In this document: piece by piece, positions 22,150 to 59,066 of the stretch
Layout of the letters: each line of letters opens with the position of its first letter
Position numbering within the stretch: the first letter of the stretch is position 1
Source: Eledone cirrhosa
Lineage: Eukaryota
Direction of reading: 5' to 3'
Assembly: GCA_964016885.1 (NCBI GenBank)
Contig: OZ024743.1
Span: 73,718,001 to 73,782,000 of the forward strand
DNA length: 64,000 nucleotides
Translations under genes and position numbers: made by a program
The notes under the pieces: generated by a model
Told to the model about the DNA's origin: nothing
The model's database searches: none
Seen by the model: the letters and a program-made list of their open reading frames with translations, nothing else

Positions 22150-23184
22150 ATTGGAATAAATGCTCTGAAATAGCGATATATATGTGAATATAGACATAGA
22201 ATATTCGAAAATATTCTGTATGTTTATAATAAACATTTTGAAGACCTAATCGCTATAGAATAGAATACGTCACGTATTACAATTAGATTCTCGATAAAAG
22301 CAAGGGAAGTAATCTACGCGTTTCATTCTTGTTAGAAATCATCAGGACTACATATCCAGTGCTTTTATCGAGAATGACACAGCTAGAGACTTATAGAATA
22401 CTTAGCTGTGTACAGGAACTGGTTTGAAAGAGCGGTTGCCGGTCCGGCAGAAATTAGAAATTGGAATAAATGCTCTGAAATAGCGATATATATGTGAATA
22501 TAGACATAGAATATTCGAAAATATTCTGTATGTTTATAATAAACATTTTGAAGACCTAATCGCTATAGAATAGAATACGTCACGTATTACAATTAGATTC
22601 TCGATAAAAGCAAGGGAAGTAATCTACGCGTTTCATTCTTGTTAGAAATCATCAGGACTACATATCCAGTGCTTTTATCGAGAATGACACAGCTAGAGAC
22701 TTATAGAATACTTAGCTGTGTACAGGAACTGGTTTGAAAGAGCGGTTGCCGGTCCGGCAGAAATTAGAAATTGGAATAAATGCTCTGAAATAGCGATATA
22801 TATGTGAATATAGACATAGAATATTCGAAAATATTCTGTATGTTTATAATAAACATTTTGAAGACCTAATCGCTATAGAATAGAATACGTCACGTATTAC
22901 AATTAGATTCTCGATAAAAGCAAGGGAAGTAATCTACGCGTTTCATTCTTGTTAGAAATCATCAGGACTACATATCCAGTGCTTTTATCGAGAATGACAC
23001 AGCTAGAGACTTATAGAATACTTAGCTGTGTACAAACTGGTTTGAAAGAGCGGTTGCCGGTCCGGCAGAAATTAGAAATTGGAATAAATGCTCTGAAATA
23101 GCGATATATATGTGAATATAGACATAGAATATTCGAAAATATTCTGTATGTTTATAATAAACATTTTGAAGACCTAATCGCTAT
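22150..23184 (-). mobile_element. Retrozyme-like 310-bp tandem array, left arm (about 3.3 units; hammerheads at 22309-22351, 22619-22661, 22929-22971)
   Basis: Units start at 22151, 22461, 22771 and 23079 (2-bp deletion in unit 3); reverse complement of the right-arm unit; (TA)n on the left. Confidence 0.9.
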
Positions 23185-25667
23185 ATTCACATATATATCG
23201 CTATTTCAGAGCATTTATTCCAATTTCTAATTTCTGCCGGACCGGCAACCGCTCTTTCAAACCAGTTCCTGTACACAGCTAAGTATTCTATAAGTCTCTA
23301 GCTGTGTCATTCTCGATAAAAGCACTGGATATGTAGTCCTGATGATTTCTAACAAGAATGAAACGCGTAGATTACTTCCCTTGCTTTTATCGAGAATCTA
23401 ATTGTAATACGTGACGTATTCTATTCTATAGCGATTAGGTCTTCAAAATGTTTATTATAAACATACAGAATATTTTCGAATATTCTATGTCTATATTCAC
23501 ATATATATCGCTATTTCAGAGCATTTATTCCAATTTCTAATTTCTGCCGGACCGGCAACCGCTCTTTCAAACCAGTTCCTGTACACAGCTAAGTATTCTA
23601 TAAGTCTCTAGCTGTGTCATTCTCGATAAAAGCACTGGATATGTAGTCCTGATGATTTCTAACAAGAATGAAACGCGTAGATTACTTCCCTTGCTTTTAT
23701 CGAGAATCTAATTGTAATACGTGACGTATTCTATTCTATAGCGATTAGGTCTTCAAAATGTTTATTATAAACATACAGAATATTTTCGAATATTCTATGT
23801 CTATATTCACATATATATCGCTATTTCAGAGCATTTATTCCAATTTCTAATTTCTGCCGGACCGGCAACCGCTCTTTCAAACCAGTTCCTGTACACAGCT
23901 AAGTATTCTATAAGTCTCTAGCTGTGTCATTCTCGATAAAAGCACTGGATATGTAGTCCTGATGATTTCTAACAAGAATGAAACGCGTAGATTACTTCCC
24001 TTGCTTTTATCGAGAATCTAATTGTAATACGTGACGTATTCTATTCTATAGCGATTAGGTCTTCAAAATGTTTATTATAAACATACAGAATATTTTCGAA
24101 TATTCTATGTCTATATTCACATATATATCGCTATTTCAGAGCATTTATTCCAATTTCTAATTTCTGCCGGACCGGCAACCGCTCTTTCAAACCAGTTCCT
24201 GTACACAGCTAAGTATTCTATAAGTCTCTAGCTGTGTCATTCTCGATAAAAGCACTGGATATGTAGTCCTGATGATTTCTAACAAGAATGAAACGCGTAG
24301 ATTACTTCCCTTGCTTTTATCGAGAATCTAATTGTAATACGTGACGTATTCTATTCTATAGCGATTAGGTCTTCAAAATGTTTATTATAAACATACAGAA
24401 TATTTTCGAATATTCTATGTCTATATTCACATATATATCGCTATTTCAGAGCATTTATTCCAATTTCTAATTTCTGCCGGACCGGCAACCGCTCTTTCAA
24501 ACCAGTTCCTGTACACAGCTAAGTATTCTATAAGTCTCTAGCTGTGTCATTCTCGATAAAAGCACTGGATATGTAGTCCTGATGATTTCTAACAAGAATG
24601 AAACGCGTAGATTACTTCCCTTGCTTTTATCGAGAATCTAATTGTAATACGTGACGTATTCTATTCTATAGCGATTAGGTCTTCAAAATGTTTATTATAA
24701 ACATACAGAATATTTTCGAATATTCTATGTCTATATTCACATATATATCGCTATTTCAGAGCATTTATTCCAATTTCTAATTTCTGCCGGACCGGCAACC
24801 GCTCTTTCAAACCAGTTCCTGTACACAGCTAAGTATTCTATAAGTCTCTAGCTGTGTCATTCTCGATAAAAGCACTGGATATGTAGTCCTGATGATTTCT
24901 AACAAGAATGAAACGCGTAGATTACTTCCCTTGCTTTTATCGAGAATCTAATTGTAATACGTGACGTATTCTATTCTATAGCGATTAGGTCTTCAAAATG
25001 TTTATTATAAACATACAGAATATTTTCGAATATTCTATGTCTATATTCACATATATATCGCTATTTCAGAGCATTTATTCCAATTTCTAATTTCTGCCGG
25101 ACCGGCAACCGCTCTTTCAAACCAGTTCCTGTACACAGCTAAGTATTCTATAAGTCTCTAGCTGTGTCATTCTCGATAAAAGCACTGGATATGTAGTCCT
25201 GATGATTTCTAACAAGAATGAAACGCGTAGATTACTTCCCTTGCTTTTATCGAGAATCTAATTGTAATACGTGACGTATTCTATTCTATAGCGATTAGGT
25301 CTTCAAAATGTTTATTATAAACATACAGAATATTTTCGAATATTCTATGTCTATATTCACATATATATCGCTATTTCAGAGCATTTATTCCAATTTCTAA
25401 TTTCTGCCGGACCGGCAACCGCTCTTTCAAACCAGTTCCTGTACACAGCTAAGTATTCTATAAGTCTCTAGCTGTGTCATTCTCGATAAAAGCACTGGAT
25501 ATGTAGTCCTGATGATTTCTAACAAGAATGAAACGCGTAGATTACTTCCCTTGCTTTTATCGAGAATCTAATTGTAATACGTGACGTATTCTATTCTATA
25601 GCGATTAGGTCTTCAAAATGTTTATTATAAACATACAGAATATTTTCGAATATTCTATGTCTATATT
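23181..25667 (+). mobile_element. Retrozyme-like 310-bp tandem array, right arm (8 units, one hammerhead each)
   Basis: ctatattcac recurs every 310 bp from 23181 to 25351; ends in (TA)n. Confidence 0.9.
23333..23375 (+). ncRNA. Minimal type I hammerhead ribozyme (repeats every 310 bp up to 25503-25545)
   Basis: gtagtc-CTGATGA-t ttct aaca agaa t-GAAA-cgcg-TA-gattac. Predicted cleavage after GUA at 23369. Stem I is extended by the 16-bp attctcgataaaagca/tgcttttatcgagaat. Confidence 0.88.
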
Positions 25668-26525
25668 ATATATATATATACATAAATGGCAATTTCTGTC
25701 TTTTTGTGAACCTAAAACTTAAAAATTACCAAACAGATCTTGATGAAACTTGACACGTGTGTGGGGGTTCATGCCCATTTGATTTCGTACGTATATTTCA
25801 TTTCAATCAAAATGTTCCCCCGGGGTTCAAATCCCCGCTGAGAACCCCCGCTTAATTTTTTCCCTTCGATTTATATGAAATGTAAACCATAGGTAAATGA
25901 CAAGATATGATGCCTATTCACAAAATTTCAGCAAATTTCATTAATATTAAGATAACCTAATGGGGGTTAAACGCCCTATAGTGAAAATTTTGTAAGCCCA
26001 TAACTTGAGTATTGGAACTTTGAATTTCTAATTTGAAAATAATGCTTTACACAAAAATGAAGTGATCAAGTTTTGAATTGATATTTTGAAAAAAATTATT
26101 TATAAAAAACAAAATAAGAACAAGATTTAATAATGTAATTTTGATTTGATATATTACAAAAAATAATTGTTTCTACTTTTGGCACAAGGCCAGCAATTAC
26201 CAAGTGCATTACTGGTACATTATTTTATCGACCCCGTAAGGATGAAAGGCAAAGTAAACCTCGGCGGGATTTGAACTCAGAATGGCAAGGACCGTAACTC
26301 TATGCGTCAAAGCATGGCGTCCGACCCTCTACCGATACTGCCAATCCACCGCCCCTATATTTCAAAAAATAATGTTTTCCAATTTTTCATGCATTACATT
26401 TTACATTGAGTAATATTGAAATGCAGAGTTTTTCGCTATAAATTATATCACTGATTCAAAATCAATCATCATTTTCTTACAAAAGAAATATGTGAAACGC
26501 CACAAGGCGCGGGTAATTCGGCTAG
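25668..26525 (+). mobile_element. Non-autonomous Helitron-like element with a nested SINE (26163-26355, minus)
   Basis: TA-rich start; 3' GC hairpin cgccacaaggcg then ggtaattcggCTAG|t. Confidence 0.55.
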
Positions 26526-26544
26526 TATATATATTATGGCTCCC

Positions 26545-26960
26545 CCCCCCCTCGTTATCGAGTATGCCCATTGCACGATATAACATTATTAATTGTTTCT
26601 ACTTTTGGCACAAGGCCAGCAATTAACCAGTACATTACTGCTACTTTATTTTATCGACCCCGTAAGGATGAAAGGCAAAGTTAAACTCGGCGGGTGCAAT
26701 ATCTGTGAATGAAGATTTTTTTTAAAGTGAGGAAAGACTGTGCACTGAGCCAATCCCACTCTCTGAGCGACAGTAGCTATAACCCGAAAAGAAGAAAAGT
26801 TCAACATCGTCGGTAACTACTGAGCCGCCGGTTTTATGTCGGAGTTATCCCAGTTTCCTGAGTTGCTTTCTCCTAGAAGAATGCCCTGACAAAGGCTAGG
26901 GGTCCTTCACTCTCAGTGGTTTAACCGCGCGATCGGGTATCTAGCCCGATTATTTCTATG
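26545..26960 (+). mobile_element. SINE/LINE-UTR-like repeat interrupted by a SINE fragment (26592-26694, minus)
   Basis: Matches uninterrupted 34340-34495 (ttatcgagtatg...gaggaaagactgtgcactgagccaat). Confidence 0.6.
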
Positions 26961-27025
26961 TCCCCGCGCATATATATATATACATACATACATACATATA
27001 TATATGTATATACATACACGCACAC

Positions 27026-27105
<80 letters not shown>

Positions 27106-27178
27106 GTTATTCCGGGTTGAATCGGAGGTAACCACAGTAAGTAAGGTACTCAATACATAGCAGAGTATAAAAGTTTTA

Positions 27179-27292
27179 ATATAGATGAGATTCTACAGGA
27201 CTAGAACTGTTTCATTCTTTAGAAATCATCAGGAAATCTTGATGATTTCTAAAGAATGAAAAAGTTCTAGTCCTGTAGAATCTCATCTATTT
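27179..27292. repeat. Foldback palindrome (arms about 55 bp) of a hammerhead-core segment
   Basis: Left arm reads CTGATGA-tttctaaagaat-GAAA on minus; the right arm is the same segment on plus with two core changes. A same-family fragment lies at 8530-8650. Confidence 0.8.
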
Positions 27293-27834
27293 ATATATAC
27301 AGGGGAGGAGAGAGAGAGTGAGGAAGAGAGATAGGGGGAGTGAGAATTAATAAACTACTGGTACATGTATAGGTCCTGTACCACCTTATGCATCGATACT
27401 GGATGGTTACGTAACTTATAGTGGAGGACTGAATTGACGAGCGATGCTTTCTGTCTTGTCTCCGCGTGTTTCTGTATTTTATATATTTTGAAGCAATCTG
27501 CCAGCCAGAGCCGGATTTATGAGGTGCAAAGGTGACAATTACCCGGGACCCCTGCAGTGGGAAATCTCACCAGCGATGGCAGTAGCAATTTATTTGTGCC
27601 CACAGCTGGGCTTTTTTAGTTTTAGGATGGTTAGAATGTTTGAATTTAATACCTCTATGTATAACTTTTCAATTCCAATTGTAGAAAATTAACTTTGATA
27701 TGTAAAACTGGGGAGTGTGTGTGTGGGGGGTGGGGTGGGGGTGCTGTGTATTCTAAATAAAACTGAAGTGCCGCCCCCCATCCCCCAAGTCTAAATCCAA
27801 ACCTGGTGCCAGCCCCACCACTCGGTCCTCAGAT

Positions 27835-30800
27835 GATGGGAGGAAGGTATAAAAGCCAACTTTGATGTTCGTGCCTAGCTATGGTCATGAATTTGGGGTA
27901 TTGACCGAAAGAGTACGGTCGCAAATATGTGGGGCAATGGAGTTCTCCCAAAGAGTGTTTGGAGAACGTTACTCGATAGAGTACATAGCTCGGTGTTGAG
28001 GGAGTCGCTCCAGGCTGGAGTACCGTTACTCGATAGAGTACATAGCTCGGTGTTGAGGGAGTCGCTCCAGGCTGGAGTACCGTTACTCGATAGAGTACAT
28101 AGCTCGGTGTTCAGGAAGTCGCTCCAGGCTGGAGTACCGTTACTCGATAGAGTACATAGCTCGGTGTTCAGGGAGTCGCTCCAGGCTGGAGTACCGTTAC
28201 TCTATAGAGTACATAGCTCGGTGTTCAGGGAGTCGCTTCAGGATGGAGTACCGTTACTCGATAGAGTACATAGTTCGGTGTTCAGGGAGTCGCTCCAGGC
28301 TGGAGTACCGTTACTCTATAGAGTACATAGCTCGGTGTTCAGGGAGTCACTCCAGGCTGGAGTAACGTTACTCGATAGAGTACATAGTTCAGTGTTCAGG
28401 GAGTCGCTCCAGGTTGGAGTACCGTTACTCGATAGAGTACATAGCTCGGTGTTCAGGGAGTCACTCCAGGCTGGAGTAACGTTACTCGATAGAGTATATA
28501 GCTCGGTGTTCAGGGAGTCACTCCAGGCTGGAGTGATGTGACTCGATAGAGTACATAGCTCGGTGTTCAGGGAGTCGCTCCAGGCTGGAGTAACGTTACT
28601 CGATAGAGTACATAGCTCGGTGTTCAGGGAGTCACTCCAGGCTGGAGTGATGTGACTCGATAGAGTACATGGCTCGGTGTTCAGGGAGTCGCTCCAGGCT
28701 GGAGTACCGTTACTCGATAGAGTACATAGCTCGGTGTTCAGGGAGTCGCTCCAGGTTGGAGTAACGTTACTCGATAGAGTACATAGCTCGGTGTTCAGGG
28801 AGTCGCTCAAGGTTGGAGTAACGTTACTCGATAGAGTACATAGTTCAGTGTTCAGGGAGTCGCTCCAGGTTGGAGTAACGTTACTCGATAGAGTACATAG
28901 TTCGGTGTTCAGGGAGTCGCTCCAGGCTGGAGTAACGTTACTCGATAGAGTACATAGCTCGGTGTTCAGGGAGTCGCTCAAGGTTGGAGTAACGTTACTC
29001 GATAGAGTACATAGCTCGGTGTTCAGGGAGTCGCTCCAGGCTGGAGTAACGTTACTCGATAGAGTACATAGCTCGGTGTTCAGGGAGTCGCTCTAGGCTG
29101 GAGTAACGTTACTCGATAGAGTACATAGTTCGGTGTTCAGGGAGTCGCTCCAGGTTGGAGTAACGTTACTCGATAGAGTACATAGCTCGGTGTTCAGGGA
29201 GTCGCTCTAGGCTGGAGTAACGTTACTCGATAGTGTACATAGCTCGGTGTTCAGGGAGTCGCTCCAGGTTGGAGTAACGTTACTCGATAGAGTACATAGT
29301 TCGGTGTTCAGGGAGTCGCTCCAGGCTGGAGTAACGTTACTCGATAGAGTACATAGCTCGGTGTTCAGGGAGTCGCTCAAGGTTGGAGTAACGTTACTCG
29401 ATAGAGTACATAGCTCGGTGTTCAGGGAGTCGCTCCAGGCTGGAGTAACGTTACTCGATAGAGTACATAGCTCGGTGTTCAGGGAGTCGCTCTAGGCTGG
29501 AGTAACGTTACTCGATAGAGTACATAGTTCGGTGTTCAGGGAGTCGCTCCAGGTTGGAGTAACGTTACTCGATAGAGTACATAGCTCGGTGTTCAGGGAG
29601 TCGCTCTAGGCTGGAGTAACGTTACTCGATAGAGTACATAGTTCGGTGTTCAGGGAGTCGCTCCAGGATGGAGTACCGTTACTCGATAGAGTACATAGTT
29701 CGGTGTTCAGGGAGTCGCTCCAGGCTGGAGTAACGTTACTCGATAGAGTACATAGCTCGGTCTTCAGGGAGTCGCTCCAGGCTGGAGTAACGTTACTCGA
29801 TAGAGTACATAGCTCGGTGTTCAGGGAGTCACTCCAGGCTGGAGTGATGTGACTCGATAGAGTACATGGCTCGGTGTTCAGGGAGTCGCTCCAGGCTGGA
29901 GTACCGTTACTCTATAGAGTACATAGTTCGGTGTTCAGGGAGTCGCTCCAGGTTGGAGTAACGTTACTCGATAGAGTACATAGCTCGGTGTTCAGGGAGT
30001 CGCTCAAGGTTGGAGTAACGTTACTCGATAGAGTACATAGTTCAGTGTTCAGGGAGTCGCTCCAGGTTGGAGTAACGTTACTCGATAGAGTACATAGCTC
30101 GGTGTTCAGGGAGTCGCTCCAGGTTGGAGTAACGTTACTCGATAGAGTACATAGTTCAGTGTTCAGGGAGTCGCTCCAGGGTGGAGTAACGTTACTCGAT
30201 AGAGTACATAGTTCAGTGTTCAGGGAGTCGCTCCAGGTTGGAGTAACGTTACTCGATAGAGTACATAGTTCGGTGTTCAGGGAGTCGCTCCAGGTTGGAG
30301 TAACGTTACTCGATAGAGTACATAGCTCTGTGTTCAGGGAGTCGCTCCAGACTGGAGTAACGTTACTCGATAGAGTACATAGCTCGGTCTTCAGGGAGTC
30401 GCTCCAGGCTGGAGTAACGTTACTCGATAGAGTACATAGCTCGGTGTTCAGGGAGTCACTCCAGGCTGGAGTGATGTGACTCGATAGAGTACATGGCTCG
30501 GTGTTCAGGGAGTCGCTCCAGGCTGGAGTACCGTTACTCGATAGAGTACATAGTTCAGTGTTCAGGGAGTCGCTCCAGGTTGGAGTAACGTTACTCGATA
30601 GAGTACATAGTTCGGTGTTCAGGGAGTCGCTCCAGGCTGGAGTACCGTTACTCTATAGAGTACATAGCTCGGTGTTCAGGGAGTCGCTCCAGGTTGGAGT
30701 AACGTTACACGATAGAGTACATAGTTCAGTGTTCAGGGAGTCGCTCCAGGTTGGAGTAACGTTACTCGATAGAGTACATAGTTCAGTGTTCAGGGAGTCG

Positions 30801-31140
30801 CTCCAGGTTGGAGTAACGTTACTCGATAGAGTACATAGTTCGGTGTTCAGGGAGTCGCTCCAGGCTGGAGTACCGTTACTCGATAGAGTACATAGCTCGG
30901 TGTTCAGGAAGTCGCTGCAGGTTGGAGTAACGTTACTCGATAGAGTGCATAGTTCGGTGTTCAGGGAGTCGTTCCAGGTAGATTCATTACTGCTTCAAAT
31001 TGAGAGATCACAGCTCCGATACTATGAATATGTGATTAAAATATTTCAGGAAAGAATCACTGGACATATTTTACGAGCAAAGCCGATCGGTAGAGACCCA
31101 AAGGTTTGCATGAGCAATAGGAGACGGTTACGTCGGATAC
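27835..31140 (+). mobile_element. RTE-clade LINE fragment split by an internal minisatellite
   Basis: Left flank YGHEFGVLTERVRSQI; right flank LLLQIERSQLRYYEYV..QERITGHILRAKPIGR, matching the RTE post-RT region. Confidence 0.8.
27968..30978. repeat. 57-bp (19-codon) minisatellite, about 53 units
   Basis: gttactcgatagagtacatagctcggtgttcagggagtcgctccaggctggagtaac repeated in tandem. Confidence 0.97.
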
Positions 31141-31537
31141 GACCTTCTAGAATGTTTCTGAGTAGATTATGCGGGAATTTCTAGCATTTGCCTTCTAATC
31201 CTTCATTGACGCATTTTGCTGAAAATTCCAGTATTTTTAGAGTTCACTCACATTTACTATAGTTGGGGATCCGCTCTCTTTTGATTGGTAGGGGTAATGT
31301 TTGGGATAGCTCACCTCTAAAGAATGAGCTTACTTACTTTGTTTTCATATCTGTATTACTTAGGTGGCAAATCTCTTACATGTACCGTGTGTTGTCTGAT
31401 CTGTAGAGTCTGATAAGAAAGTCTGTTACTTTTACATATATATTACCCTCTTTCTTGTTTTCATTCCCCTTCGTGATCAGTTTTAGTCATATCACTATGA
31501 ATAATAGTAACCAATGCACAATTGGTCATACACATAT

Positions 31538-31615
<78 letters not shown>

Positions 31616-31734
31616 GTATAGTATATTTGGCAATATACCGTATGTTTAATTAAAAACATTTAGAAGACCATACGCTATCGGTTTTAAAGTAGTGACTATG
31701 TCACTTACTTCTTTTCGGCGAAAGAAGGGAGAGA

Positions 31735-31776
31735 AGCTAACAGTCTGTTTCACGCTGGTTGGCGATCATCAGAGCC
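31735..31776 (-). ncRNA. Type I hammerhead motif in a diverged relative (31640-31840) of the 310-bp unit
   Basis: ggct-CTGATGA-t cgc caacca gcg t-GAAA-cagactg-TT-agct. The flank aaacatttagaagacc..cgctat matches the 310-bp unit. Confidence 0.7.
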
Positions 31777-31945
31777 ACGCGCCCCCTGCGAAAATTATAG
31801 AAGCTGTATTCTTATAGAATTCTAGTAATAATCAGGAGCTATGTGTGTGGGTGTGTGTGTGCGAGCGCGCTCGTGTAAGTGTCTGTGTGCGCTTCTGATC
31901 AGCACGTACACACACACACACACTCATACATATATATATATACAT

Positions 31946-31976
<31 letters not shown>

Positions 31977-32052
31977 ATTTAGGTAATAACATGTGCTTAT
32001 GCCGTATACTACTAAATAAAATTAGTCTGTTAGTTGGGAAATCCTCTGAATG

Positions 32053-32140
32053 GAAAAAAAGTACACGGGACATGGGACACGAACCCACATCTTTGGTTTG
32101 CCGGACCAATGTGGTACCATTAGTAACATGTTCCGGTACA
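32053..32140 (-). other. tRNA-like sequence followed by an oligo-T terminator
   Basis: Anticodon-like arm ttggt-ccggcaa-accaa, T-arm gtggg-ttcgtgt-cccat, then an oligo-T run. Acceptor and D arms are imperfect. Confidence 0.5.
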
Positions 32141-32869
32141 TGGGAATTATGTTAAGGATACTCGTATCTGTGGCATGAGCAGGATGGATGTCTCGTTGAT
32201 CGAATAACCGGAACACTCATCGTCGAAATCGAAGAAGATCCCTCGATTAATTTGTTATAATATTTCATAGTGCACGTAATAGCGCTGATAAGTCTGTGTG
32301 GAGTAAATGACTTATATTATTTACTTTCGTCCCTTTGATTCTGCTTGGGTCAAAACTTAAACACCTTTTTAAAGTTGATAAAACATACTTTAATACGATA
32401 TTGAGACGGGTCTATTGATTATACAGCCCGACCCCATCCCACTGATAATAGACTTCGTGCCTAATCTAAAGAAACAGGTATATCTCAATGATCGTGTGTA
32501 CTAGATCAATAGTTAAGCTTCCAGGATTGAGCAATGGGCTAAAATAATAGACAGAGAAATTCACGACATGATTTTGATTCCAGGCTGGAAGTCATTTTCA
32601 GTTTACAAACGCCGCCGTTGAACACCACCAGACCTCATTTCTCATGTCTATTGTTCTATGTAAAAAGAAAAACACACACACATACAATTTAAATCTAGAA
32701 AAAGCACAGTGACAGCATAAAGGATATCTTACAAGCAGACATAAAAAGAGGCCCTTCAACGATAGGATGTCCTCAGTCCTGCAACCAACGACATATTTTT
32801 ATGGACTGATTTTCGAGAGGGAACATAAATGTTGCCGAGTAGGAGACACTGGAAAATATAGGGCCATAC

Positions 32870-33650
32870 ACATCGACATATTTACACACATATAAATACA
32901 CTACACATACATGTACACACATGTACACATACATGTACACACATATATACATACACATATATAAATACACTACACATACATGTACACACATGTACACGTA
33001 CACGTACATGTACACACATATATACATACACATATATAAATACACTACACATACATGTACACACATATATACATACACATATATAAATACACTACACATA
33101 CATGTACACACATATATACATACACATATATAAATACACTACACATACATGTACACACATATATACATACACATATATAAATACACTACATATACATGTA
33201 CACACATATATACATACACATATATAAATACATTACACATACATGTACACACATATATACATACACATATATAAATACACTACATATACATGTACACACA
33301 TAATAACATACGGGCACATATGCACAAACACACTCATACAAAGACATACAAACATACGTACTAATACAATGCATACACATATATACTAACACTTATGTAC
33401 ATACACATAGACACATACAAGACTATGCTCATATGTACATACACATAAACATATACAAGAACATACATACATGCAAGCATAGACATATATGTACACGTAT
33501 ATACATATATGTGTGTATGCACAAACACACTCATATAAACACGCATACAAACATACGTACTCATACACACATACAGATATGTACATACACGATCATGCAC
33601 ATATGTACATATACATAAACGCATACAAGAACATGCACACATACATACAC
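32870..33650. repeat. Compound AC/AT minisatellite (about 42-bp units) grading into degenerate microsatellite
   Basis: Recurrent catatataaatacactacacatacatgtacaca. Confidence 0.85.
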
Positions 33651-33755
33651 GCATCAACGGTGATAGTGGTGATGGTGGTGTTGGTGTTGGTGGTGGTGGT
33701 GGTGGTTGTGGTATTGGTGGTGGTGTTGGTGATGGTGGTGGTGGTGGTGTTAGTG

Positions 33756-33787
<32 letters not shown>

Positions 33788-34564: not shown

Positions 34565-34598
<34 letters not shown>

Positions 34599-34660
34599 CA
34601 TACATACATACATACATACATACATACATACATACATACATACATACATACATACATACA

Positions 34661-35133: not shown

Positions 35134-35164
<31 letters not shown>

Positions 35165-35221
35165 CATACATACATACATACATACATACATACATACATA
35201 CATACATACATACATACATAC

Positions 35222-35830: not shown

Positions 35831-36059
35831 CATGTACAGATACAAAGGATATACACATGCACACATACAACTCAAAACATACACATCCACACATACGATA
35901 ACATCCATATCTACACATGCATGCATGCAGACATACATACATATCTACCTAGTTGATGTTGTGTAAATTCCACTGAGAGAGTCTTGTGTCTATGTTAGAA
36001 ACCGACTCTCTCTCTATTGGGAAAAAATTTGTGAAATTATAAAACCAGAAGAACATACA

Positions 36060-36694: not shown

Positions 36695-36781
<87 letters not shown>

Positions 36782-37189: not shown

Positions 37190-37221
<32 letters not shown>

Positions 37222-42739: not shown

Positions 42740-42839
42740 ATATAGCTCTGATTTATCTGAATTATTGAGCCCTCTGCCACTCATATCGAATTTTGTTTAT
42801 CGTGAACTCGTGCGCCGATCTTTCGATATTCGATTATTC

Positions 42840-42843
<4 letters not shown>
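42740..42843 (-). repeat. Fragment of the 617-bp unit family
   Basis: Reverse complement of ...atcggcgcacgagttcacgataaac...gggctcaataattcagat..., abutting (TA)n. Confidence 0.8.
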
Positions 42844-42884
<41 letters not shown>

Positions 42885-42913
42885 AAGAATAGAGGTGTAA
42901 CACATGAGTTATG

Positions 42914-43296
42914 ATATATTGGTAAAAGGAAAAGAAAATGCTGACAAATTGTTCCCAGTGAAAAATAGTTTAATTAGGAATAAGTAAAAATTAGTAATAG
43001 TATTGGTTAGTATTCAGTTTGGGTTTTAAGTTTTACCGGTTGCGCATTTCTAATGCTTTGCAAAAATAATTTTGAGATAGAGCGTCCGTAATGTTTGCTC
43101 TAATCTCTAGAGCAAACATTACGGACGCTCTATCTCAAAATTATTTTTGCAAAGCATTAGAAATGCGCAACCGGTAAAACTTAAAACCCAAACTGAATAC
43201 TAACCAATACTATTACTAATTTTTACTTATTCCTAATTAAACTATTTTTCACTGGGAACAATTTGTCAGCATTTTCTTTTCCTTTTACCAATATAT
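42914..43296. repeat. Perfect foldback with arms of about 190 bp and a loop of about 5 nt; same family as 12790-13690
   Basis: Centre gtaatgtttgctcta-atctc-tagagcaaacattac; (TA)n flanks. Confidence 0.92.
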
Positions 43297-48760: not shown

Positions 48761-49323
48761 ATGGGCAGAAATAACAAAATTGCCCTGGTGATATCCACGG
48801 ATGAAGTATGCGACAAAACTGGTCGATGTTCCAAAATAGAACATTGCCCAGAAAATCACACCTGCCATATCTGTACGGAACCCGAAAACTCGTTCCGTAA
48901 TCGCTGGGTCGAATGTGGAACCTGTCGCATCTCTGTCTGCCTTCAATGCACCACAGGCTTCCGGAGGATCCCAGGCCCCCAAAAGAGACATCATAATGCT
49001 ATGATGGATGGAATCTTGGAGATGGTCCAGCTAAAATCCTGGTCCTTTCAGTGCCTGGCCTATGTGCCTGCCTCCACCAATGTTATTGAAAAACAACAAC
49101 AACAAAAAAACGATGACTGTATCTTCATCTACCGTTGTTAGTGAACGGCAAAAACCTATGACACTGGCTTCTGCTGCTATTCCTCTGGGAGAACATCAGA
49201 AACAACAACAACCCATGTCTTCCGCTCCCAGTACATCTCGACACCAACAACCGGCGACTGTGTCTTCCCCTACCATTCCCGTGGAGGAACATCATCACCA
49301 CCACCACCACCACCACCACCACC

Positions 49324-49387
<64 letters not shown>

Positions 49388-50054
49388 GCAGCAGCAGCAG
49401 CAACAACAACAACAACCGACCAGTACAGATTTTGCAGAATTGCAACTAATGATTTCTGCTTTAAGAAGGGAAGTAACAGGAATAAAGGCAAGCATTCGGG
49501 TAGGACCCCACAATGATGTGTCTTATCGGAATGCCTTGCTAAAGAATCTCCCTGTACCTCTTGCCGTATCTGGGCACACTGAGAAGACTGCGGAATCTGC
49601 TACCCATGAAGTGATTGCCATTGGGGTACCAGAGGACAAGGCTGATCTTCAGGCATTTTCTGCCAGCTCAGTCAAAGACCTAGGCTGTGTTCCCCCAAAA
49701 GGTGCTCTCCGCCTTGATCGAGCTCGTCCAAAACCCAGACTCATCAGGCTGTCTTTTCCGGACCCCGCTGAGGCAATCTCATACCATCTGGCCTCTGTTA
49801 AAGCTGGGCGTGAAAATCGGATTACCTTCCGAACACGCCCAGGCCTACCACCCTATGTACGTCCAAAGCTACGTGCTGCAGCTTCCTTGAATCGGAACTC
49901 AGCACAACATGAAAGTTTTAGTCTGCGTGATGATGGGCAGATCTGGAGGTTTGTTAAGGCTGGTGAAACGTGGAAGAGAGATACCAGCTGGTCTGAGTGT
50001 ACTCTACCCACAATAACTAGCAATGAAAAAACTGCAACAACTCTGGGAAACTAA
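48761..50054 (+). pseudogene. LINE ORF1 with PHD finger; frameshift near 49090-49115; poly-His/poly-Gln insert
   Basis: CHIC..WVECGTC...CLQC...FQC, then a coiled-coil-like segment and VIAIGVPE..RLDRARPKPRLIRLSF. Confidence 0.75.
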
Positions 50055-50113
50055 ACCAGAACAACCTGCCACGCTCTACACACCATCATAAACTGCAAGC
50101 AGGGTACAAACTG

Positions 50114-52810
50114 TTGTCCTTAAATGCTCGCAGTTTATGCAACAAGGTACATCTGTTTGGCTCCTACGTCAGAAGCATTGACCCTGACTTCATCACAGTC
50201 ACGGAAACATGGGCACATTCCTTACTCTGTGATGGGGTTTTCAGCATTACTGGGTACAACCTTTTCCGCAAGGACCGCATTAATTGCCGTGGTGGTGGTG
50301 TGATGGTCTACGTTCGTTCAAACTTTTCGGTAATTCCTTGCGTTGATTTGAACGAATCACAGGAAGAAGTTTTTTTTTGTGACATACGTATGACCATGTC
50401 AACACTTCTGCTTGGTGTTGTTTATCGCCACCCAAACTACCATCAGGACACACAGCTTTACCATATCCTCAGAGTTGCTGCCAGGAAAACAGCCACTTAT
50501 GTGTTTATTGCAGGTGACTTCAATCGTCCTGAGATCGATTGGGAAACCTTTCGTTGGCCACAAAGTGCAAACGATTTCCTTGAACTAGTGCTGGACTCAA
50601 ACTGGTCACAAGTAGTCACCTCTCCAACAAGAGGTGACAACACTTTGGACCTGATCTTCACCACTACTCCTGAAGTGGTTATCAGTTGTACTACTGAGGA
50701 ACCTCTAGGCGATTCTGATCATGCTATGATCATTGCCAATCTGGCTCTTGCGGGCAGCAACAAAAACCAGAGCCATCTCCAATCTGCTTGCTTTGATTGG
50801 AAGAAAGCAGATTGGAACTTGTACTGCACTGAGCTACAGCGCCCAAACTGGCATGAGTTCTATAACTCTGGAGATGTGAACACTATACTCCAGAGCATCC
50901 TGGACTCAATGTGGATAGCGTGTGCAGCATCGGTGCCACGTAAGCAGAAAAAAACCACCCCCAAAGTGCAATTTGGGAAACTTCAGCGGTGCGACTTGCC
51001 AGGAAAGAACACCGGAACGCTGAACGGGAATATAAACTGCATAAATCAGATGCCAACAGAAAAAAGCGGAATAAATCTTCTAACTATCTCAAGCAAGTGA
51101 CAAAGAAGGCAGTGCTTGAATTTGAATAGTGCATAGCAACCAATCCTGACAGTAAGGTGTTCTGGAAATATGTTCATTCAAAGCAGAGATCTCACTCTTC
51201 AGTTGGTCCTCTTCGCAATCCTCACACAAGCCAGATCACTGTCGATCCCAAAGAATGCGCAGAACTCATTGCTGAGTGCTATGCAAGTATTTCTACTGTT
51301 GAAAACCAGAATGTACCATCTCCACCATCTCTAACATCAAATTCCATAACAACTATGGAATTTACACCTGCAATGTTGCGACGTCATCTTAAGAATAAGC
51401 GCAACTATGACTCCCCTGGTCTTGATGGTGTTACATACCTGCTTCTCAAACGTGGTGGGTATTTCCTTTTGCGCCAGCTTTCCTCTTTCAATACTGTCTC
51501 AACAATGGTGCTACTCCGGAGCAGTGGAAAACTGCCAGTGTCATCCCCTGTTCAAAAAGGGCAACCGCATGTCACCTGTCAACAATCGTCCAGTCAGTCT
51601 TACTAGCTGTATGGCCAAACTGATGGAATCCTGTGTCAGAGAAACACTTTGGAACTTCTGGAGCTCTCACAGCCTCATCCGGCCCTCGCAGTTTGGATTT
51701 ATCCCTAACTCCAGCTGCTGTGATCAGCTTATCGAAGACATCACCCGGATCACTGACAGCGGCTCATGGGTGGATGTTGTTTACCTTGACTTTGCTAAGG
51801 CTTTTAATTCTGTACCACACAAAAGACTTATGGCAAAACTCTCTGCAATGGGTGTGAGGGATGATCTTTTCGACTAGTTGAAATCCTTCATTCTCAGCCG
51901 AAAAGAGGTAGTTACGGTTCTAGGACAGCATTCTTCACCATATGAGATGTCATCTGGTGTACCACAGGGATCTGTTCTTGATCTCCTTTTGTTCGTGGCA
52001 TATATTAATGACATAGATGCCAACTTACAGAATGCCACGGTACTAAAATATGCAGATGACATCAAGCTGTACCTTGAAATCAAAAGGACTGATCCTGAAA
52101 TCTACAACTCTTTCCTACAATCAGACCTGGACACAATGCAGCATTGGATCACAGACTGGCAACTGAAGCTGGCTGTGGACAAGTGTACCACCATGCATTT
52201 TGGGAGGAAAAATCCAGCGTCCACATACTCCCTCCACAACACTGATATCAAGAAGTCCTCTTGTGAACGTGACCTGGACATTACTGTCAGCAGCGATTTG
52301 CGTTGGACAAAGCATGTCTCTAAGATTGTCAAGAAGGCTGAGGGTGTCTTGGCATCACTCAGCAAGACCTTTGTTAGCCGCTCTCCAGCCATCTATTTAA
52401 AGCTGTATACAGCTATGGTACGACCACACTTGGAATTCGCATCATCAGTCTGGAACCCCTATCTTGCTCAGAACATTGACCTCCTGGAAACTGTTCAAAG
52501 ACGTGCGACCAAGCGCATACCCTCCATCAGACACCTACCATACTCTGAACGCCTTGTTTCCCTGGGCATGGATTCATTGAAGCTCCGACGTCTGGCAATG
52601 GACTTGGTAAACATCCACAAAGTTATTAACCATCTCGCCAACAACAACCCTGAGCCCCTTTTTGATCTCCATGTGTCTAACACACGTGGACATGCCTACA
52701 AAATCAGAAAACAGCACAGCTCCCATGATTTTCGTAGACATTTTTTCACGCTCAGAGTTGCTGAAGCATGGAACAAACTGCCTGCGTCAGTTGTTAGCTG
52801 CATCCTTTAA
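50114..52810 (+). pseudogene. LINE ORF2 (APE endonuclease plus reverse transcriptase) with frameshifts and stops
   Basis: NARSL, TETW, GDFN, LDLIF, SDH; RPVSLTS, QFGF, LDFAKAF, GVPQGSVL, YADD, RPHLEFAS.VWNP. Confidence 0.93.
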
Positions 52811-53236
52811 AACACTCATGCTTCCCGAGATACGCCAAAACTACACCTGATGTACCCCTTCCATACACATGCACACATGTGTATATCATGACTCATGCAC
52901 TGTTCATTTTCCTGACGTCTGTACATTACCGTATGTACTATACATACACTTTTTGATGAATTGTAGTGCACCTGAGAACTGTACACAATATTTCATTATT
53001 ATTATTATTATTCAACATCCGTAACTCGCTCAACGGTTCTAAAAATAGATTGTATGTGAGAGTATGGTGTGTGTGTTGGGTGTGTGTGTGTTGGGGGGGG
53101 GGGGGGGTCTAGACATCCAGTAATTAAGATGTCTAGCAAAATGAAAATAACGACACATTCAAGGGAGGTAACTTTTAAAGTTATGTCCCTGAAATTGATT
53201 CAAATGTGTTTCTGTGATTTCCTAGGTTAGTTGGGG

Positions 53237-53274
<38 letters not shown>

Positions 53275-53644
53275 GTGGTGGTGATAGTTGCGGTGAATAT
53301 GATGGTGGTGATATATGTGTAAGTGGTGATGGTGATGGAGGTGGTTGTGGTGGTCGTGGTGGTAGTGATGGTGGAGTTGGTGGTGGAGGTAGTGGTGTGA
53401 TGTTTGCGGTTGTTCTGGTTCATCATTTATTTATTTACTACGACTACTTTGGGGGTACAACGCACTAAAACAACACACTTCTAAGTTAAAATGAGAACAC
53501 ATTTGATAATGTATTCCGGGGTACACTATGACTTCACTTCCTTAGAGGATTAACACCAAACTCTGGATCTGAACATATCAATGTATTAACACGGTAAAAT
53601 CTATTCCAACATTGTGTTTTCCTGTTTCTTCGGTTCAATTTCTA

Positions 53645-53703
53645 ACTGGCTGATGAGGTCATAGCTGTTGAATAATGGCTATTACTGAAATATATATAGC
53701 AGT
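53645..53703 (+). ncRNA. Type I hammerhead motif, relative of the 12.0 and 17.2-kb copies
   Basis: actgg-CTGATGA-ggtcatagctgttgaataatggctattact-GAAA-tatata-TA-gcagt. Confidence 0.65.
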
Positions 53704-53769
53704 GAATATGAATAAACGAAGCTAATTTTACCCTGTTGACTCACACTTCTTATATATATATATATATAT

Positions 53770-55353
53770 ATATAAACGGAAAAAATGAAACGAAATTTCA
53801 TTTCCCACTCTTAGTACGGCTGTTACTTAAATATAAGTATGTATACGTACATACATATATGTATACAGACGTACAGTAGTATGTATATATATATACATAT
53901 ATGCAGACATATAAATATGTACGTATGGATTCACCGAACATTTATTATAATGCTCGGTGTGTTTGTAAACAAACATCCCGTATTAAGCCGTAGTGTCTAG
54001 CAACAATCGTTGCTCGTTTGTTCAACACTGACAAAGGAACGCTGTACAAGTTTCAAACTTATTAGGTATCGTCAGCAAAGTATACCTTCCTGCCAGATGG
54101 TTGAACGTCTGAAAGTATAAACTTTCCTTATGCACATTAACGGGTGAGCAGCCTAATTTGCATATCGAGTGAGTTAATCGGCGGGGGTACCGAAAACGAT
54201 AAACGGAAAAAATGACACGAAATTTCATTTCCCACTCTTAGTACGGCTGTTACTTAAATATAAGTATGTATACGTACATACATATATGTATACAGACGTA
54301 CAGTAGTATGTATATATATATACATACATGCACATATATATATATGTACGTATGGATTCACCGAACATTTATTATAATGCTCGCTGTGTTTGTAAACAAA
54401 CATCCCGTATTAAGCCGTAGTGTCTAGCAACCATCGTTGCTCGTTTGTTCAACACTGACAAAGGAACGCTGTATAAGTTTCAAGCTTATTAGCTATCGTC
54501 AGTAACGTATACCTTCCTGCCAGATGGTTGAACGTCTGAAAGTATAAACTTTCCTTATGCACATTAACGGCTGAGCAGCCTAATTTGCATGTCGAGTGAG
54601 TTAATCGGCAGGGGTTCCGAAAACGATAAGCGGAAAAAATGAAACGAAATTTCATTTCCCACTCTTAGTACGGCTGTTACTTAAATATAAGTATGTATAC
54701 GTACATACATATATGTATACAGACGTACAGTAGTATGTATATATATATACATACATGCACACATATATATATGTACGTATCGATTCACCGAAAATTTATT
54801 ATAATGCTCGCTGTGTTTGTAAACAAACATCCCGTATTAAGCCGTAGTGTCTAGCAACCATCGTTGCACGTTTGTTCAACACTGACAAAAGAACGCTGTA
54901 CTAGTTTCAAGCTTATTAGCTATCGTCAGCAACGTATACCTTCCTGCCAGATGGTTGAACGTCTGAAATTTCGTTTCATTTTTTCCGTTTATCGTTTTCG
55001 GTACCCCGGCCGATTAACTCACTCGATATACAAATTAGGCTGCTCAGCCGTTAATGTGCATAAGGAAAGTTTATACTTTCAGACGTTCAACCATCTGGCA
55101 GGAATGTATACGTTGCTGACGATAGCTAATAAGCTTTAAACTAGTACAGCGTTACTTTGTCAGTGTTGAACAAACGAGCAACGATGGTTGCTAGACACTA
55201 CGGCTTAATACGGGATGTTTGTTTACAAACACACCGAGCATTATAATAAATGTTCGGTGAATCCATACGTACATATATATATGTGTGCATGTATGTATAT
55301 ATATATACATACTACTGTACGTCTGTATACATATATGTATGTACGTATACATA

Positions 55354-55360
<7 letters not shown>
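53770..55360. mobile_element. Retrozyme-like 427-bp array: about 2.8 units (hammerhead on minus) plus an inverted 0.9 unit from about 54966; (TA)n flanks
   Basis: Period 427. Hammerheads at 54039-54081, 54466-54508 and 54893-54935 (-) and 55110-55152 (+, GAAA changed to TAAA). Confidence 0.85.
54893..54935 (-). ncRNA. Minimal type I hammerhead ribozyme
   Basis: acgttg-CTGACGA-t agct aata agct t-GAAA-ctag-TA-cagcgt; palindromic stem III ACTAGT. Confidence 0.85.
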
Positions 55361-55448
<88 letters not shown>

Positions 55449-55449
55449 A

Positions 55450-57213
55450 TATATTAGAAAGATCGAGTATCGAAAAATCGGCGCACGAGTTCACGATAAA
55501 CGAGATTCGACATGAGCGGCAGAGGGCTCAATAATTCAGATGAATCAGAGCTATAACTATCGTTAAAATACCGTCACATATAGAACAAGTCTACAATCAA
55601 CCATACGATTTAAAATCGATAAAGGAAGATTCGGGACAAACAGATAAAAAATATCAATAAAACAATACGTCAATAATTTAAATGAATGTAAAATCATACC
55701 CGGACCCACTAGACAGGTGTTAAATCTAGCTTCATGGGTTTCTGTAAATCCTTAGACTGTACTCTATCAGCTCACATATAAATATAAAAGCCTACTAGAG
55801 CAAGCGGAACGGAGTTTTACTTTCTCAACGAGTTTTTTTCCTGGCGGTAGAGGAGCCAACTACCAGTGAAAAACGCACATGGCATTAGACAAGGGAGATA
55901 ACCCCTATATCCGCGAAAACAATTCGAGTGAATGTGGAAATACACATATCGAATTAGAGTGCTCAATAGACATGTTAAAATAAAACAAAAGCTATTCATC
56001 ACTCAATAGAATCGACAAAAAATGAGCAATAAAATTAACTGGTGGATAGCTATGTCCAGAGCTAAATATATTAGAAAGATCGAGTATCGAAAAATCGGCG
56101 CACGAGTTCACGATAAACGAGATTCGACATGAGCGGCAGAGGGCTCAATAATTCAGATGAATCAGAGCTATAACTATCGTTAAAATACCGTCACATATAG
56201 AACAAGTCTACAATCAACCATACGATTTAAAATCGATAAAGGAAGATTCGGGACAAACAGATAAAAAATATCAATAAAACAATACGTCAATAATTTAAAT
56301 GAATGTAAAATCATACCCGGACCCACTAGACAGGTGTTAAATCTAGCTTCATGGGTTTCTGTAAATCCTTAGACTGTACTCTATCAGCTCACATATAAAT
56401 ATAAAAGCCTACTAGAGCAAGCGGAACGGAGTTTTACTTTCTCAACGAGTTTTTTTCCTGGCGGTAGAGGAGCCAACTACCAGTGAAAAACGCACATGGC
56501 ATTAGACAAGGGAGATAACCCCTATATCCGCGAAAACAATTCGAGTGAATGTGGAAATACACATATCGAATTAGAGTGCTCAATAGACATGTTAAAATAA
56601 AACAAAAGCTATTCATCACTCAATAGAATCGACAAAAAATGAGCAATAAAATTAACTGGTGGATAGCTATGTCCAGAGCTAAATATATTAGAAAGATCGA
56701 GTATCGAAAAATCGGCGCACGAGTTCACGATAAACGAGATTCGACATGAGCGGCAGAGGGCTCAATAATTCAGATGAATCAGAGCTATAACTATCGTTAA
56801 AATACCGTCACATATAGAACAAGTCTACAATCAACCATACGATTTAAAATCGATAAAGGAAGATTCGGGACAAACAGATAAAAAATATCAATAAAACAAT
56901 ACGTCAATAATTTAAATGAATGTAAAATCATACCCGGACCCACTAGACAGGTGTTAAATCTAGCTTCATGGGTTTCTGTAAATCCTTAGACTGTACTCTA
57001 TCAGCTCACATATAAATATAAAAGCCTACTAGAGCAAGCGGAACGGAGTTTTACTTTCTCAACGAGTTTTTTTCCTGGCGGTAGAGGAGCCAACTACCAG
57101 TGAAAAACGCACATGGCATTAGACAAGGGAGATAACCCCTATATCCGCGAAAACAATTCGAGTGAATGTGGAAATACACATATCGAATTAGAGTGCTCAA
57201 TAGACATGTTAAA
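55450..57213. repeat. 617-bp tandem array (about 2.85 apparently identical units) with TA flanks
   Basis: tagaaagatcgagtatcg recurs at 55455, 56072 and 56689. Confidence 0.92.
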
Positions 57214-57357
57214 TATATATATGTTTGTTGGTTCACCACGGGATAGAATTGGTCATTCCGTATGGTCAATCTTGATGTAATATTATGGAGAGTACTCAAC
57301 GTAGTGCAGTTCACCCGTCTTCGTTTGTGTAGTTGGTGGTGCTAATACGGAGTTAAT

Positions 57358-58699
57358 TATTATAAATAAAATAACAGGAGGCTGGACTGGTGTAAATCCT
57401 TGAAAATGTATTATACTATGATCATTTCAATGACCGGGTTCCGTATGAATCCGGTGATATCATCAGGTATTCGAAATGTAACAAAGGAATATATAAAAAC
57501 CATGGTTCCGAAATCAGAGACAGAGAGGACGGCTGACCAACTAGCTGCTTTCACCTCGGTCAGTCGCCCTCAAGTGATGGCAACTCTGTCTACTAATGAC
57601 CATCTGGTGAGGGAGCGAACGCTTATAATGTACCCTAGGTATGACAGCGTTTTATTCATGTATTTTACTTTTTACTTTTTACCTTATTAATGTATTTTTA
57701 TTAATGTATTTTTTATATATTTTTTTATTTCTTATCTTTGTATTTTTATCTTTGTATCCTGCTTTTATTTATTTGTGATTTTCTGCTTATTATTCCCTAC
57801 TCAGGTCATTATGCACCATTCATAGCTCCCTACCCACCAAAGAACCACACTACTTATAACCCGGAATAACTGGGACTTAAAAATAATTATAGTCTATTGG
57901 CACTTTTCATTGGGTTTTACCACTTTTGACTGATGTGGTGGATTTGCCGGCTGTGCGCCGGGCCCTAGGGAGGTTCTGCCTTCATTGAGTGCTTGGAAAA
58001 ATAAATTTCCATCCTTTCGGTAAACGAAACTCCTCGGAGCGGATCGATTTTCCCCGGGGCCCGCCGCGCCGCCTGTCTTAACCGCCATATTATACTCATA
58101 CCGATAAACTCTAGGGTTAGGCATAACTGTTAGCCCTATCATGCTTCCCTGTGCTGGCACGTAAATAAACCCCTCATGTGTGAATTAATAGTATTCGTTT
58201 GGTATAGACGATGACTTGTAGAAGCCGATTGACTTCCCGGTAGCACACTCGGGGCCTATCGCAGCTACGTTCCTAGAGTACTCGGAAAAATTAATTTCCA
58301 TTTATTTCGCTAGACGATACCACTCGAAACTGGCTGACACGTGGTTAGGAGGTGCTGGCTGGGATTTACAATCGAAGGCTTTTATCTTTACTCTATACCC
58401 CAGCTGGATAACTTATCGAGATTCCCTATAATACACTTACACTTTTTCATATAAGACTCTCTCGGTAATTTCATTAAATAATTCTCGCAACACAAACCTT
58501 TAATTTTTTATTAATTTTCTAATAATTTAATTTCATCCTATAATTCTTAACATAAGTTAACGTTCCAATTTTCTGTTCACACATTAGACTATACAGACAC
58601 CCATATATATGCTTTTGTTAAAATATGGGTTCTTTGGAATAACATTTTTCGCGGCGTCTTCTAGCATGACTGTAGTGTGACCCCTACGCTGACTTTTCT

Positions 58700-58760
<61 letters not shown>

Positions 58761-59066
58761 TTTTTTTATTCTCTGACGGAGAGGTGGTAGTACATTATAA
58801 GCCTTCGCCCCCTCACCAGATGGTCATTAGTAGACCGAGTTGCCATCACTTGAGGTCGACTAACCGAGGTGAAAGCAGCTAGTTGGTCAGTCATCCTCTC
58901 TGTCTCTGATTTCGGACCCATGGATTTTATATATTCCTTTGTTACATTTCGAATACCTGATGATATCACCGGATTCATACGGAACCCGGGCATTGAAATG
59001 ATCATAGTATAATAAACTTTTCAAGGATTTACATCAGTCCAGCCTCCTGTTATTTTATTTATAATA
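57358..59066. mobile_element. Element with inverted repeats of about 275 bp (57358-57633 / 58790-59066), each carrying a hammerhead
   Basis: atac-CTGATGA-long stem II-GAAA-tgatca-TA-gtat at 57413-57470 (-) and 58953-59010 (+). Confidence 0.8.

Follow-up and report, generated by a model that had tools for sequence, protein, structure and literature searches.

This analysis concerns a 64,000-nucleotide stretch of the Eledone cirrhosa genome (the window; positions 73,718,001 to 73,782,000 of the forward strand of contig OZ024743.1, GenBank assembly GCA_964016885.1, size 3.0 Gb), in which repeats bearing hammerhead ribozymes lie in (TA)n tracts as pairs of inverted, head-to-head arms. Four families are named here: A, with a 310-bp unit (22150-25667), B (27104-27293), C, with a 427-bp unit (53772-55360), and D (57223-59066). 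A fifth family, P, is an autonomous Penelope-like element (PLE) whose window copy starts at 61327. Registers are counted from the base following the predicted ribozyme cut, and the near and far sites of a family are its two fixed outer-end offsets 3' of the cleavage site. An earlier note on this DNA had missed tails of 75 nt in B and ~135 nt in D, both ending in TA. The features of the loci, together with a tandem array used as an internal control, are as follows.

21917-22149, no strand: (TA)n target tract, left flank of locus A
22150-23185, minus strand: left arm of A, 3.3 copies of the 310-bp unit; far outer end at +165, inner end at register 58
23181-23185, no strand: head-to-head junction of locus A, with the 5-nt microhomology CTATA
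23181-25667, plus strand: right arm of A, 8.0 identical units; near outer end at +128, then TA
23333-23375, plus strand: type I hammerhead of one A unit, repeated each 310 bp (motif scan; weak Rfam match)
27104-27235, minus strand: left arm of B, terminal repeat of a second autonomous PLE; far end at +92 in TA, inner end at +34 from the TATA box
27240-27293, plus strand: right arm of B; near end at +13; catalytic core mutated
53772-54968, minus strand: left arm of C, 2.8 copies of the 427-bp hammerhead unit, 96.5% alike; far end at +268-273 in TA
54964-55360, plus strand: right arm of C, 0.93 unit; junction TGAAA at 54964-54968; near end at +214 in TA; core mutated
55449-57213, no strand: 617-bp tandem array, 2.9 copies, one fixed TA-flanked end; internal control
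57223-57633, minus strand: left arm of D including the tail; far end in TA; hammerhead core at 57466-57425
57634-59066, plus strand: right arm of D, 5'-truncated body and terminal repeat; hammerhead core at 58957-58998; near end in TA
61327-61470, minus strand: inverted arm of P; far end at +145 in TA
61472-64000, plus strand: sense arm of P, 5'-truncated reverse transcriptase (RT) and GIY-YIG open reading frame (ORF), frameshifted here, and 3' region

At all four loci A to D the motif scan and the sequence place the hammerhead on the minus strand in the left arm and on the plus strand in the right arm, as the earlier note had read them. Intact hammerheads were found by the scan on both strands in A and D, and on the minus strand only in B and C, whose right (plus) copies have mutated cores. 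The window copy of P has the same polarity and is therefore a fifth locus. Genome copies were tallied by exact core patterns, which match 4200 times for A, 8541 for B, 5150 for C and 2203 for D genome-wide; the first 100 places per family were listed, all on contig C1, and polarity was scored from strand switches no more than 10 kb apart among the first 100 exact matches listed for each family. Among these, minus-then-plus switches number 9 in A, 5/5 in C, 25/25 in D and 22/22 in B, such that all 61 of the 61 inverted pairs over four families on contig C1 share one orientation. The lone plus-then-minus step, in family A, falls between two abutting insertions with TA repeats in between. Random polarity is thereby rejected, and the caution that agreement at only four loci might be due to chance no longer applies: in the wider tally, which had been proposed as a check, the inverted pairs among the matches listed are minus-then-plus throughout. 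The polarity is real and far beyond chance. The 617-bp tandem family likewise lies in TA tracts and shows no strand switch in 51 clusters, so inversion is not general to TA-tract tandem arrays in this assembly. The loci had been called unrelated or distantly related; by BLASTN this holds for the other families, but A and B share a 28-nt ribozyme core, and only that, at 93% identity.

Family A, judged from its sequence, fits the description of a non-LTR (non-long-terminal-repeat) retrozyme in tandem unit size, GC content, hammerhead and dispersal. The 310-bp unit has a GC content of 0.34 and a longest open frame of 59 codons, and is thus non-coding; 1246 far-site ends are found genome-wide. The hammerhead at 23333-23375 has a CUGAUGA core, a U.U at the base of stem II and a palindromic minimal stem III, with a predicted cut after 23369. 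Its match to Rfam HH9 (E=0.018, 19.2 bits) does not reach the gathering score of 52, and an Rfam scan of the whole window gave, among the matches listed, only low-complexity microRNA ones. The core and stems I-III are present in 11 of 11 window copies of the unit. Folded as a circle, the unit scores better than shuffled sequences (z=-5.0, which is not a measure of expression).

Each family has two fixed outer-end sites, 35-145 nt apart, and the segment between them corresponds to the PLE 'tail'. In family A the outer ends fall at ~+130 (118-139) or ~+165 (157-172). The A loci comprised ten from an unanchored core list, 40 regions anchored on the far end and 24 anchored on near ends without a listed partner. 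One near and one far end were found in 60/60 inverted loci with both ends scored (61 examined; L087, which stops at 115 and lacks TA there, was left unscored), and with five further loci the count is 65/65. When the near-end and far-end lists were paired along the first 135 Mb of C1, 41 outward pairs were mixed and none was far-far; two apparent near-near pairs were traced to an internal variant. Single-armed A insertions were found at 10/69 near ends vs 1/53 far ends (Fisher p=0.023; three far ends were not fetched and one was masked by N). In B, with outer ends at +12-28 and +86-92, a script scored 23 loci and found mixed ends at 21; the two that remain show far ends bearing internal deletions, and one further locus was unscorable. 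D loci end at +58-61 and ~+200; of 15 examined, 11 had both ends identified by motif, and all 11 are mixed. For C (+214 and +268-273), six of ten inverted loci are cleanly mixed and three unresolved, and for P (+52 and +141-145) mixed ends occur at ten of 12 two-armed loci, with one cut short. The window copy of P is itself mixed, its sense arm stopping 281 bp past the window, near site +52, in TA.

These ends are not confined to the assembly, as short-read contigs of a public sample contain junctions of unit A with TA at registers 139, 165, 168 and 170. At least 8 TA bases flank both sides in 54 of 60 loci, and repeats resembling target-site duplications (TSDs) abut the ends only at L079 and L010 among the 60. 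Across families, no common sequence motif or fold was found at the start sites beyond AU-rich ends. The claim that the arrays end in (TA)n is borne out by the TA flanks at the outer ends of A and C. The accompanying claim, that array starts are arbitrary and circularly permuted, fails, as the outer ends lie at one of two set distances 3' of the cut. Random outer ends are accordingly rejected, randomness being confined to the inner ends of A, and starts at the cleavage site itself are rejected by the same fixed offsets downstream of the cut.

The inner junctions show how the arms meet. The flip at CTATA in window locus A is confirmed at 23181-23185; that of C, which had been read as gaa near 54965, is indeed a microhomology flip, although its exact sequence is TGAAA (54964-54968). 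Among 50 A junctions, 33 are clean and 17 have insertions of 1-272 nt as mapped; microhomology of at least 2 nt occurs in 21 of the 33 clean ones vs 6.0 expected. Both arms carry the same haplotype at 30/31 A loci with at least two units per arm (15 haplotypes; permutation mean 4.6, maximum 12). In P, the arms were compared at 12 loci, selected because both arms of each contain one shared 1250-nt ORF segment; differences per 1250 nt number 0.5 within loci vs 12.5 between loci. The arms of D have too little haplotype variation to be informative. At three P loci (the window copy, L170 and L171) each arm holds sequence absent from the other, so some arms could not have been copied from each other. 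Together, junction microhomology, the single haplotype and the non-copy arms support priming from both ends of a break. We consider it very likely that both break ends prime at the two fixed sites, in agreement with the earlier proposal of priming from both ends of a (TA)n break with head-to-head joining, with which the fixed ends, microhomology and haplotypes all agree.

We hypothesize that a PLE enzyme would cut both DNA strands in (TA)n and prime reverse transcription from both broken ends. Each self-complementary (TA)n 3' end could pair with an AU-rich spot on the RNA, at the near site for one end and at the far site for the other, with each subunit of an enzyme dimer plausibly serving one of them; the near site may fire first. 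Both complementary DNAs (cDNAs) would run toward the RNA 5' side across the same sequence, which would need strand displacement, and their tips would be joined by microhomology-mediated end joining. On a linear transcript (B, and probably often D and P) the cDNAs would stop at or before the RNA 5' end. A circle (A) has no end, and copying could stop at random after up to 45 turns.

The form of the template is read from the inner ends and from sequence variants. In family A, arm lengths are exponential with a mean of 1.4 kb (Kolmogorov-Smirnov p=0.29), and the longest arms, of 27 and 45 units, are pure. Inner ends are spread uniformly: of 122, two fall near the cut (4.3 expected), there is no stop hotspot, and they are not tied to the start site of the other arm. 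A private variant is fixed throughout the array at 11 of 50 A loci, a fraction close to the 16% of single units with a stray variant, as a one-unit bottleneck predicts. Stray variation amounts to 7e-4 per base and most stray variants are single; two are shared between loci vs 4.0 by chance, and one recurring change near the cut was seen among 444 A units. We regard a circular template for A as likely.

Family B differs in its inner ends, which were mapped against a short reference unit. The spacer is 8-25 nt in 14 of the 22 listed B pairs and at least 323 nt in the rest, and among the 32 inner ends of the 16 short inversions scored, 31 are located +25 to +38 from the TATA box, 21 of them at +30 to +33. 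From this pile-up ~30 nt below the TATA box we infer run-off of a linear, uncleaved transcript at its putative 5' end, which contradicts a circle. Several D and two P inner ends, read by eye, lie at a matching distance from their own TATA boxes, and the templates of D and P are probably often linear; that of family C appears mixed. Rolling-circle copying, earlier proposed for the loci in general, is thus supported for family A only, being contradicted in B and unneeded in D and P. Circles for all four loci are rejected on the pile-up of B inner ends at the likely transcript 5' end. Taken as a whole, it is probable that the loci are two-armed TA insertions of PLEs and of their non-coding hammerhead dependants, made by both-end priming on one RNA that in family A is a circular monomer.

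Several observations weigh against this reconstruction. Most loci were drawn from a single contig, and the 40 anchored A regions were chosen by their far ends. TSDs are mostly unreadable. The far site is at both ends of P locus L176 and possibly of C locus L120 (1/10). The window A junction was not bridged in four public short-read contig sets, which is no proof of absence, and it therefore rests on the assembly. The window copies of C differ by 3.5%, AB dimer repeats, unrelated to each other, make up two C loci, and one C array of 50 units is heterogeneous. In A arrays, 12 minority variants recur and one arm of L072 changes haplotype partway along, so there is a contribution from later recombination or from multimeric templates; dimer circles or later recombination could each explain the C dimers and the A minority variants.

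Other explanations have to account for the same arms. It is unlikely, though not negligibly so, that the A template was a long linear read-through RNA, transcribed without cleavage from a pre-existing pure array and primed from both ends. An uncleaved RNA of that length would likewise give pure arms, B, D and P show linear run-off, an anole PLE prefers uncleaved RNA as its main substrate in vitro (PMC11167929), L078 shares a minority variant in the matching unit of both arms, and some C arrays are heterogeneous. By copying such a template a new variant could not spread to all units, as it has at 11 of the 50 A loci, and the template accords poorly with stray variants unshared between loci, with an arm of 45 units and with the lack of an inner-end hotspot in A. 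Less probable again is the growth of short two-armed PLE insertions by unequal crossover or slippage, as put forward for vertebrate retrozymes (bioRxiv 10.64898/2026.07.22.740005). The recurring minority variants of L032, L040b and L060 show some turnover, and C contains dimer and tetramer higher-order repeats, but one exponential fits A arms from less than one unit to 27 units, stray variation is low and mostly in single variants, both arms would have to grow independently, and the older C family has mostly short arrays. Both-end priming on one RNA, with a circle in A, accommodates these patterns better in our judgement.

The inverted arm might instead arise by self-priming, with one cDNA folding back, as in Arkhipova's model drawn from junction palindromes of rotifer PLEs (PMC3846280). 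Fold-back accounts for shared haplotypes and would give the near-palindromic junctions of P loci L168 and L175, which count against our preferred reading, and those of the short B inversions; two cDNAs running off one RNA end yield palindromes too. In A, however, the inner registers of paired arms are unrelated (8/61 within 15 nt vs 6.1 expected) and the longer arm is far in 32 loci and near in 28, while in three P loci neither arm contains the other. As the main route, fold-back is rejected by A and those P loci, and we hold it to be highly improbable. We give marginally less credence still to dual priming on two RNAs, or to template jumping among cleaved linear monomers. Dual priming has been postulated for L1 (PMC2837659), dispenses with two enzymes on one RNA, and is possible if a single haplotype dominates the RNA pool of the cell; set against it are the haplotype concordance of 30/31 among 15 haplotypes and the matching P arms within loci, and template jumping would have to reckon with the lack of scars at the cleavage junction. 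That the structures are assembly or long-read fold-back artefacts, or reflect a generic fragility of tandem repeats in TA tracts, is scarcely credible. The unbridged window A junction, a short-range duplication (L070) and a complex junction (L051) are of the kind expected, but an artefact would not produce a single polarity, one-of-each ends or junction insertions; the 617-bp family, tandem in TA, has no inversion in its 51 clusters, and short-read contigs end units in TA at the same registers.

Family P supplies an intact candidate source of the machinery. Traced from the ORF at 61391-62700, it has 136 scored matches at 98-100% identity and is thus young. The 4011-bp unit has a 738-codon ORF with a hammerhead upstream of it and targets (TA)n. 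An RDD and a GIY-YIG-like motif were read in the ORF by eye. The ORF also has RWR (38), DKT (119), CxCX5C (597), CxxC (695) and CxH (722), and one Cys inside GIY-YIG, where the clade has no cysteine pair; no Pfam or PDB match was found. The protein has 187 homologues at E<=1e-20, its named relatives all belonging to a cephalopod. P appears to match the motif description of the Hydra clade and is placed there because the clade-defining motifs are present; a hammerhead in the terminal repeat and a TA-repeat target, both characteristic of the clade, are found as well. Intact autonomous PLEs in the genome carry the same two-arm footprint. One autonomous PLE (G000:C7:78450500-78467000; L161, L162) consists of the 4011-bp unit repeated 3.3 times in tandem, 99.9% identical and with all ORFs open, and could have been copied several times around a 4-kb circle.

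The B sequence is a terminal repeat belonging to a coding PLE; the ORF of that element shares 40% identity with that of P and carries RWR and DKT. The element is a candidate helper for A, although A has only the 28-nt ribozyme core in common with B. D is a non-coding PLE derivative of 2.4-3.1 kb (~3 kb) that lacks the PLE ORF; it has no Rfam family match, and its right-arm body is only partly matched to other copies. As a coding PLE repeat and a ~3-kb element, respectively, B and D fall outside the short tandem units of non-LTR retrozymes. The C hammerhead has 5150 intact-core exact matches genome-wide, but only one of four window copies passes the stem test. C arrays in L121 (2020-6289) and L118 alternate 420- and 422-bp units, with identities of ~99.5% at lag 2 and 96% at lag 1. 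The dimers of L121 and L118 are not the same, and the arrays fit circular dimers or later block duplication. The 617-bp family, also found at 42741-42841 of the window, is non-coding, with 318 exact matches and arrays of at least ten units that have one end fixed and the other variable. Neither inversion in the 51 clusters nor a hammerhead or Rfam match was found, and the family is a candidate for a single-site circle that lacks a ribozyme or has an unknown one.

Further observations concern family A and the rest of the window. An older hammerhead-bearing relative of unit A lies at 31598-31780 (77% over 82 nt around the near site). In L032 (2999-3270), 272 bp of foreign GC-rich sequence is captured between the A arms. 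A-to-G changes restricted to some array units (registers 276 and 45) in L037, L072 and L032 may, as one idea, reflect A-to-I editing of the template RNA. Words of unit A occur at 55-75% in sequencing runs X1-X20, which bear 17 organism labels from 16 studies; contamination, diet traces or wide sharing are all possible sources. Looped single 340-nt contigs were found at low depth in X2, X5 and X8, where a circle and a tandem array are indistinguishable. A further TA-flanked inverted family, its two ends differing by a ~35-nt tail, lies at 42882-43296 and 12796-13690. Single-armed hammerhead-like elements in or beside TA tracts, with a core resembling P (74% over 65 nt), are found at 17137-17370, 11941-12104 and 53642-53750. 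The window also includes a degraded long interspersed nuclear element with endonuclease and RT domains (49035-52810; Pfam PF03372, PF14529, PF00078) and minisatellites at 4371-6734 and 27960-30978, with units of 26/50 bp and 57 bp.

On balance, we lean slightly towards a more specific form of the proposal: an asymmetric two-primer reaction by an enzyme dimer with two dedicated RNA sites, giving target-primed rolling-circle copying of up to 45 turns on ribozyme circles in the germ line of an animal and run-off on linear RNA. If so, PLE tails, inverted repeats, junction palindromes and retrozyme satellites would all follow from one two-primer mechanism, and an element having just one start site, such as the 617-bp family, would yield one arm only. 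A telomerase-related enzyme would then copy a small circle into long tandem arrays at the two ends of a break, a possible route to the birth of satellites and large palindromes in animal genomes. The genome holds thousands of very young insertions and intact helpers, which provide a quantitative footprint of integration and material with which its mechanism can be tested directly.

Metazoan non-LTR retrozymes, like A and C, are described as non-coding, low-GC tandem units with one type I hammerhead each (PMC7229834). Cervera and de la Pena (2020) proposed as a hypothesis that a PLE enzyme converts the RNA circle into tandem cDNA (PMC7229834), and Li, Clavereau and Pollet (2026) linked retrozymes to PLE repeats and invoked unequal crossover (bioRxiv 10.64898/2026.07.22.740005). 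The available text of these two papers describes no head-to-head arms, fixed end sites or (TA)n targeting. Unlike published retrozymes, the A and C arrays bear the insertion footprint of PLEs, a difference known here from genome sequence alone. Our search of the accessible literature turned up neither two-armed retrozyme arrays nor the one-of-each rule, and the portions of PMC7761336 and PMC8490949 that were accessible add nothing on inversion.

The head-to-head geometry of PLEs is already published; the one-of-each rule and the evidence for circles were not found in print. Head-to-head is reported as the commonest PLE arrangement, in which one of the inverted repeats bears a tail (PMC3846280); the explanation put forward there, self-priming with an antisense template, is disfavoured by our data. 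Inverted truncated copies, tails and (TA)n targeting were also described by Craig et al. (2021), who, in the text available, left the mechanism open (PMC8557442); the formation of tandem and inverted structures is there called undefined. The same footprint, a truncated copy inverted head-to-head and tailed at one end, recurs in the families studied here, which have in common with Hydra-clade PLEs partial tandems, an inverted 5'-truncated copy, a tail, hammerheads and a (TA)n target. Published tails, as far as these sources describe them, measure 30-40 nt and are called 'optional' or 'often at only one end', whereas ours are 35-145 nt and follow a near-strict one-of-each rule in five families.

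A close biochemical counterpart is PAc, an anole Poseidon element (Frangieh et al. 2024, PMC11167929) that in vitro cleaves both strands of AT-rich DNA and extends each of them. The enzyme, modelled as a dimer, initiates at two neighbouring sites within the RNA, and these define the tail. No difference in start site was seen between the strands, and inverted insertions and circles are unaddressed in the main text of that paper, whereas in the genome studied here the two start sites are paired in each event. L1 twin priming, the geometry originally suggested for these loci, uses a second primer at an internal site, and its arms are different parts of the RNA with a deletion between them; it is a variant route, accompanied by poly(A) and TSDs (PMC2837659). 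Two primers on one RNA, inverted and direct arms with RNA 3' ends facing outward, and junction microhomology are shared with it. Strict L1-type twin priming is nonetheless rejected, as both start sites are fixed here and both arms copy the same segment of the RNA, and, unlike the variant route of L1, two-armed products are the majority in family A.

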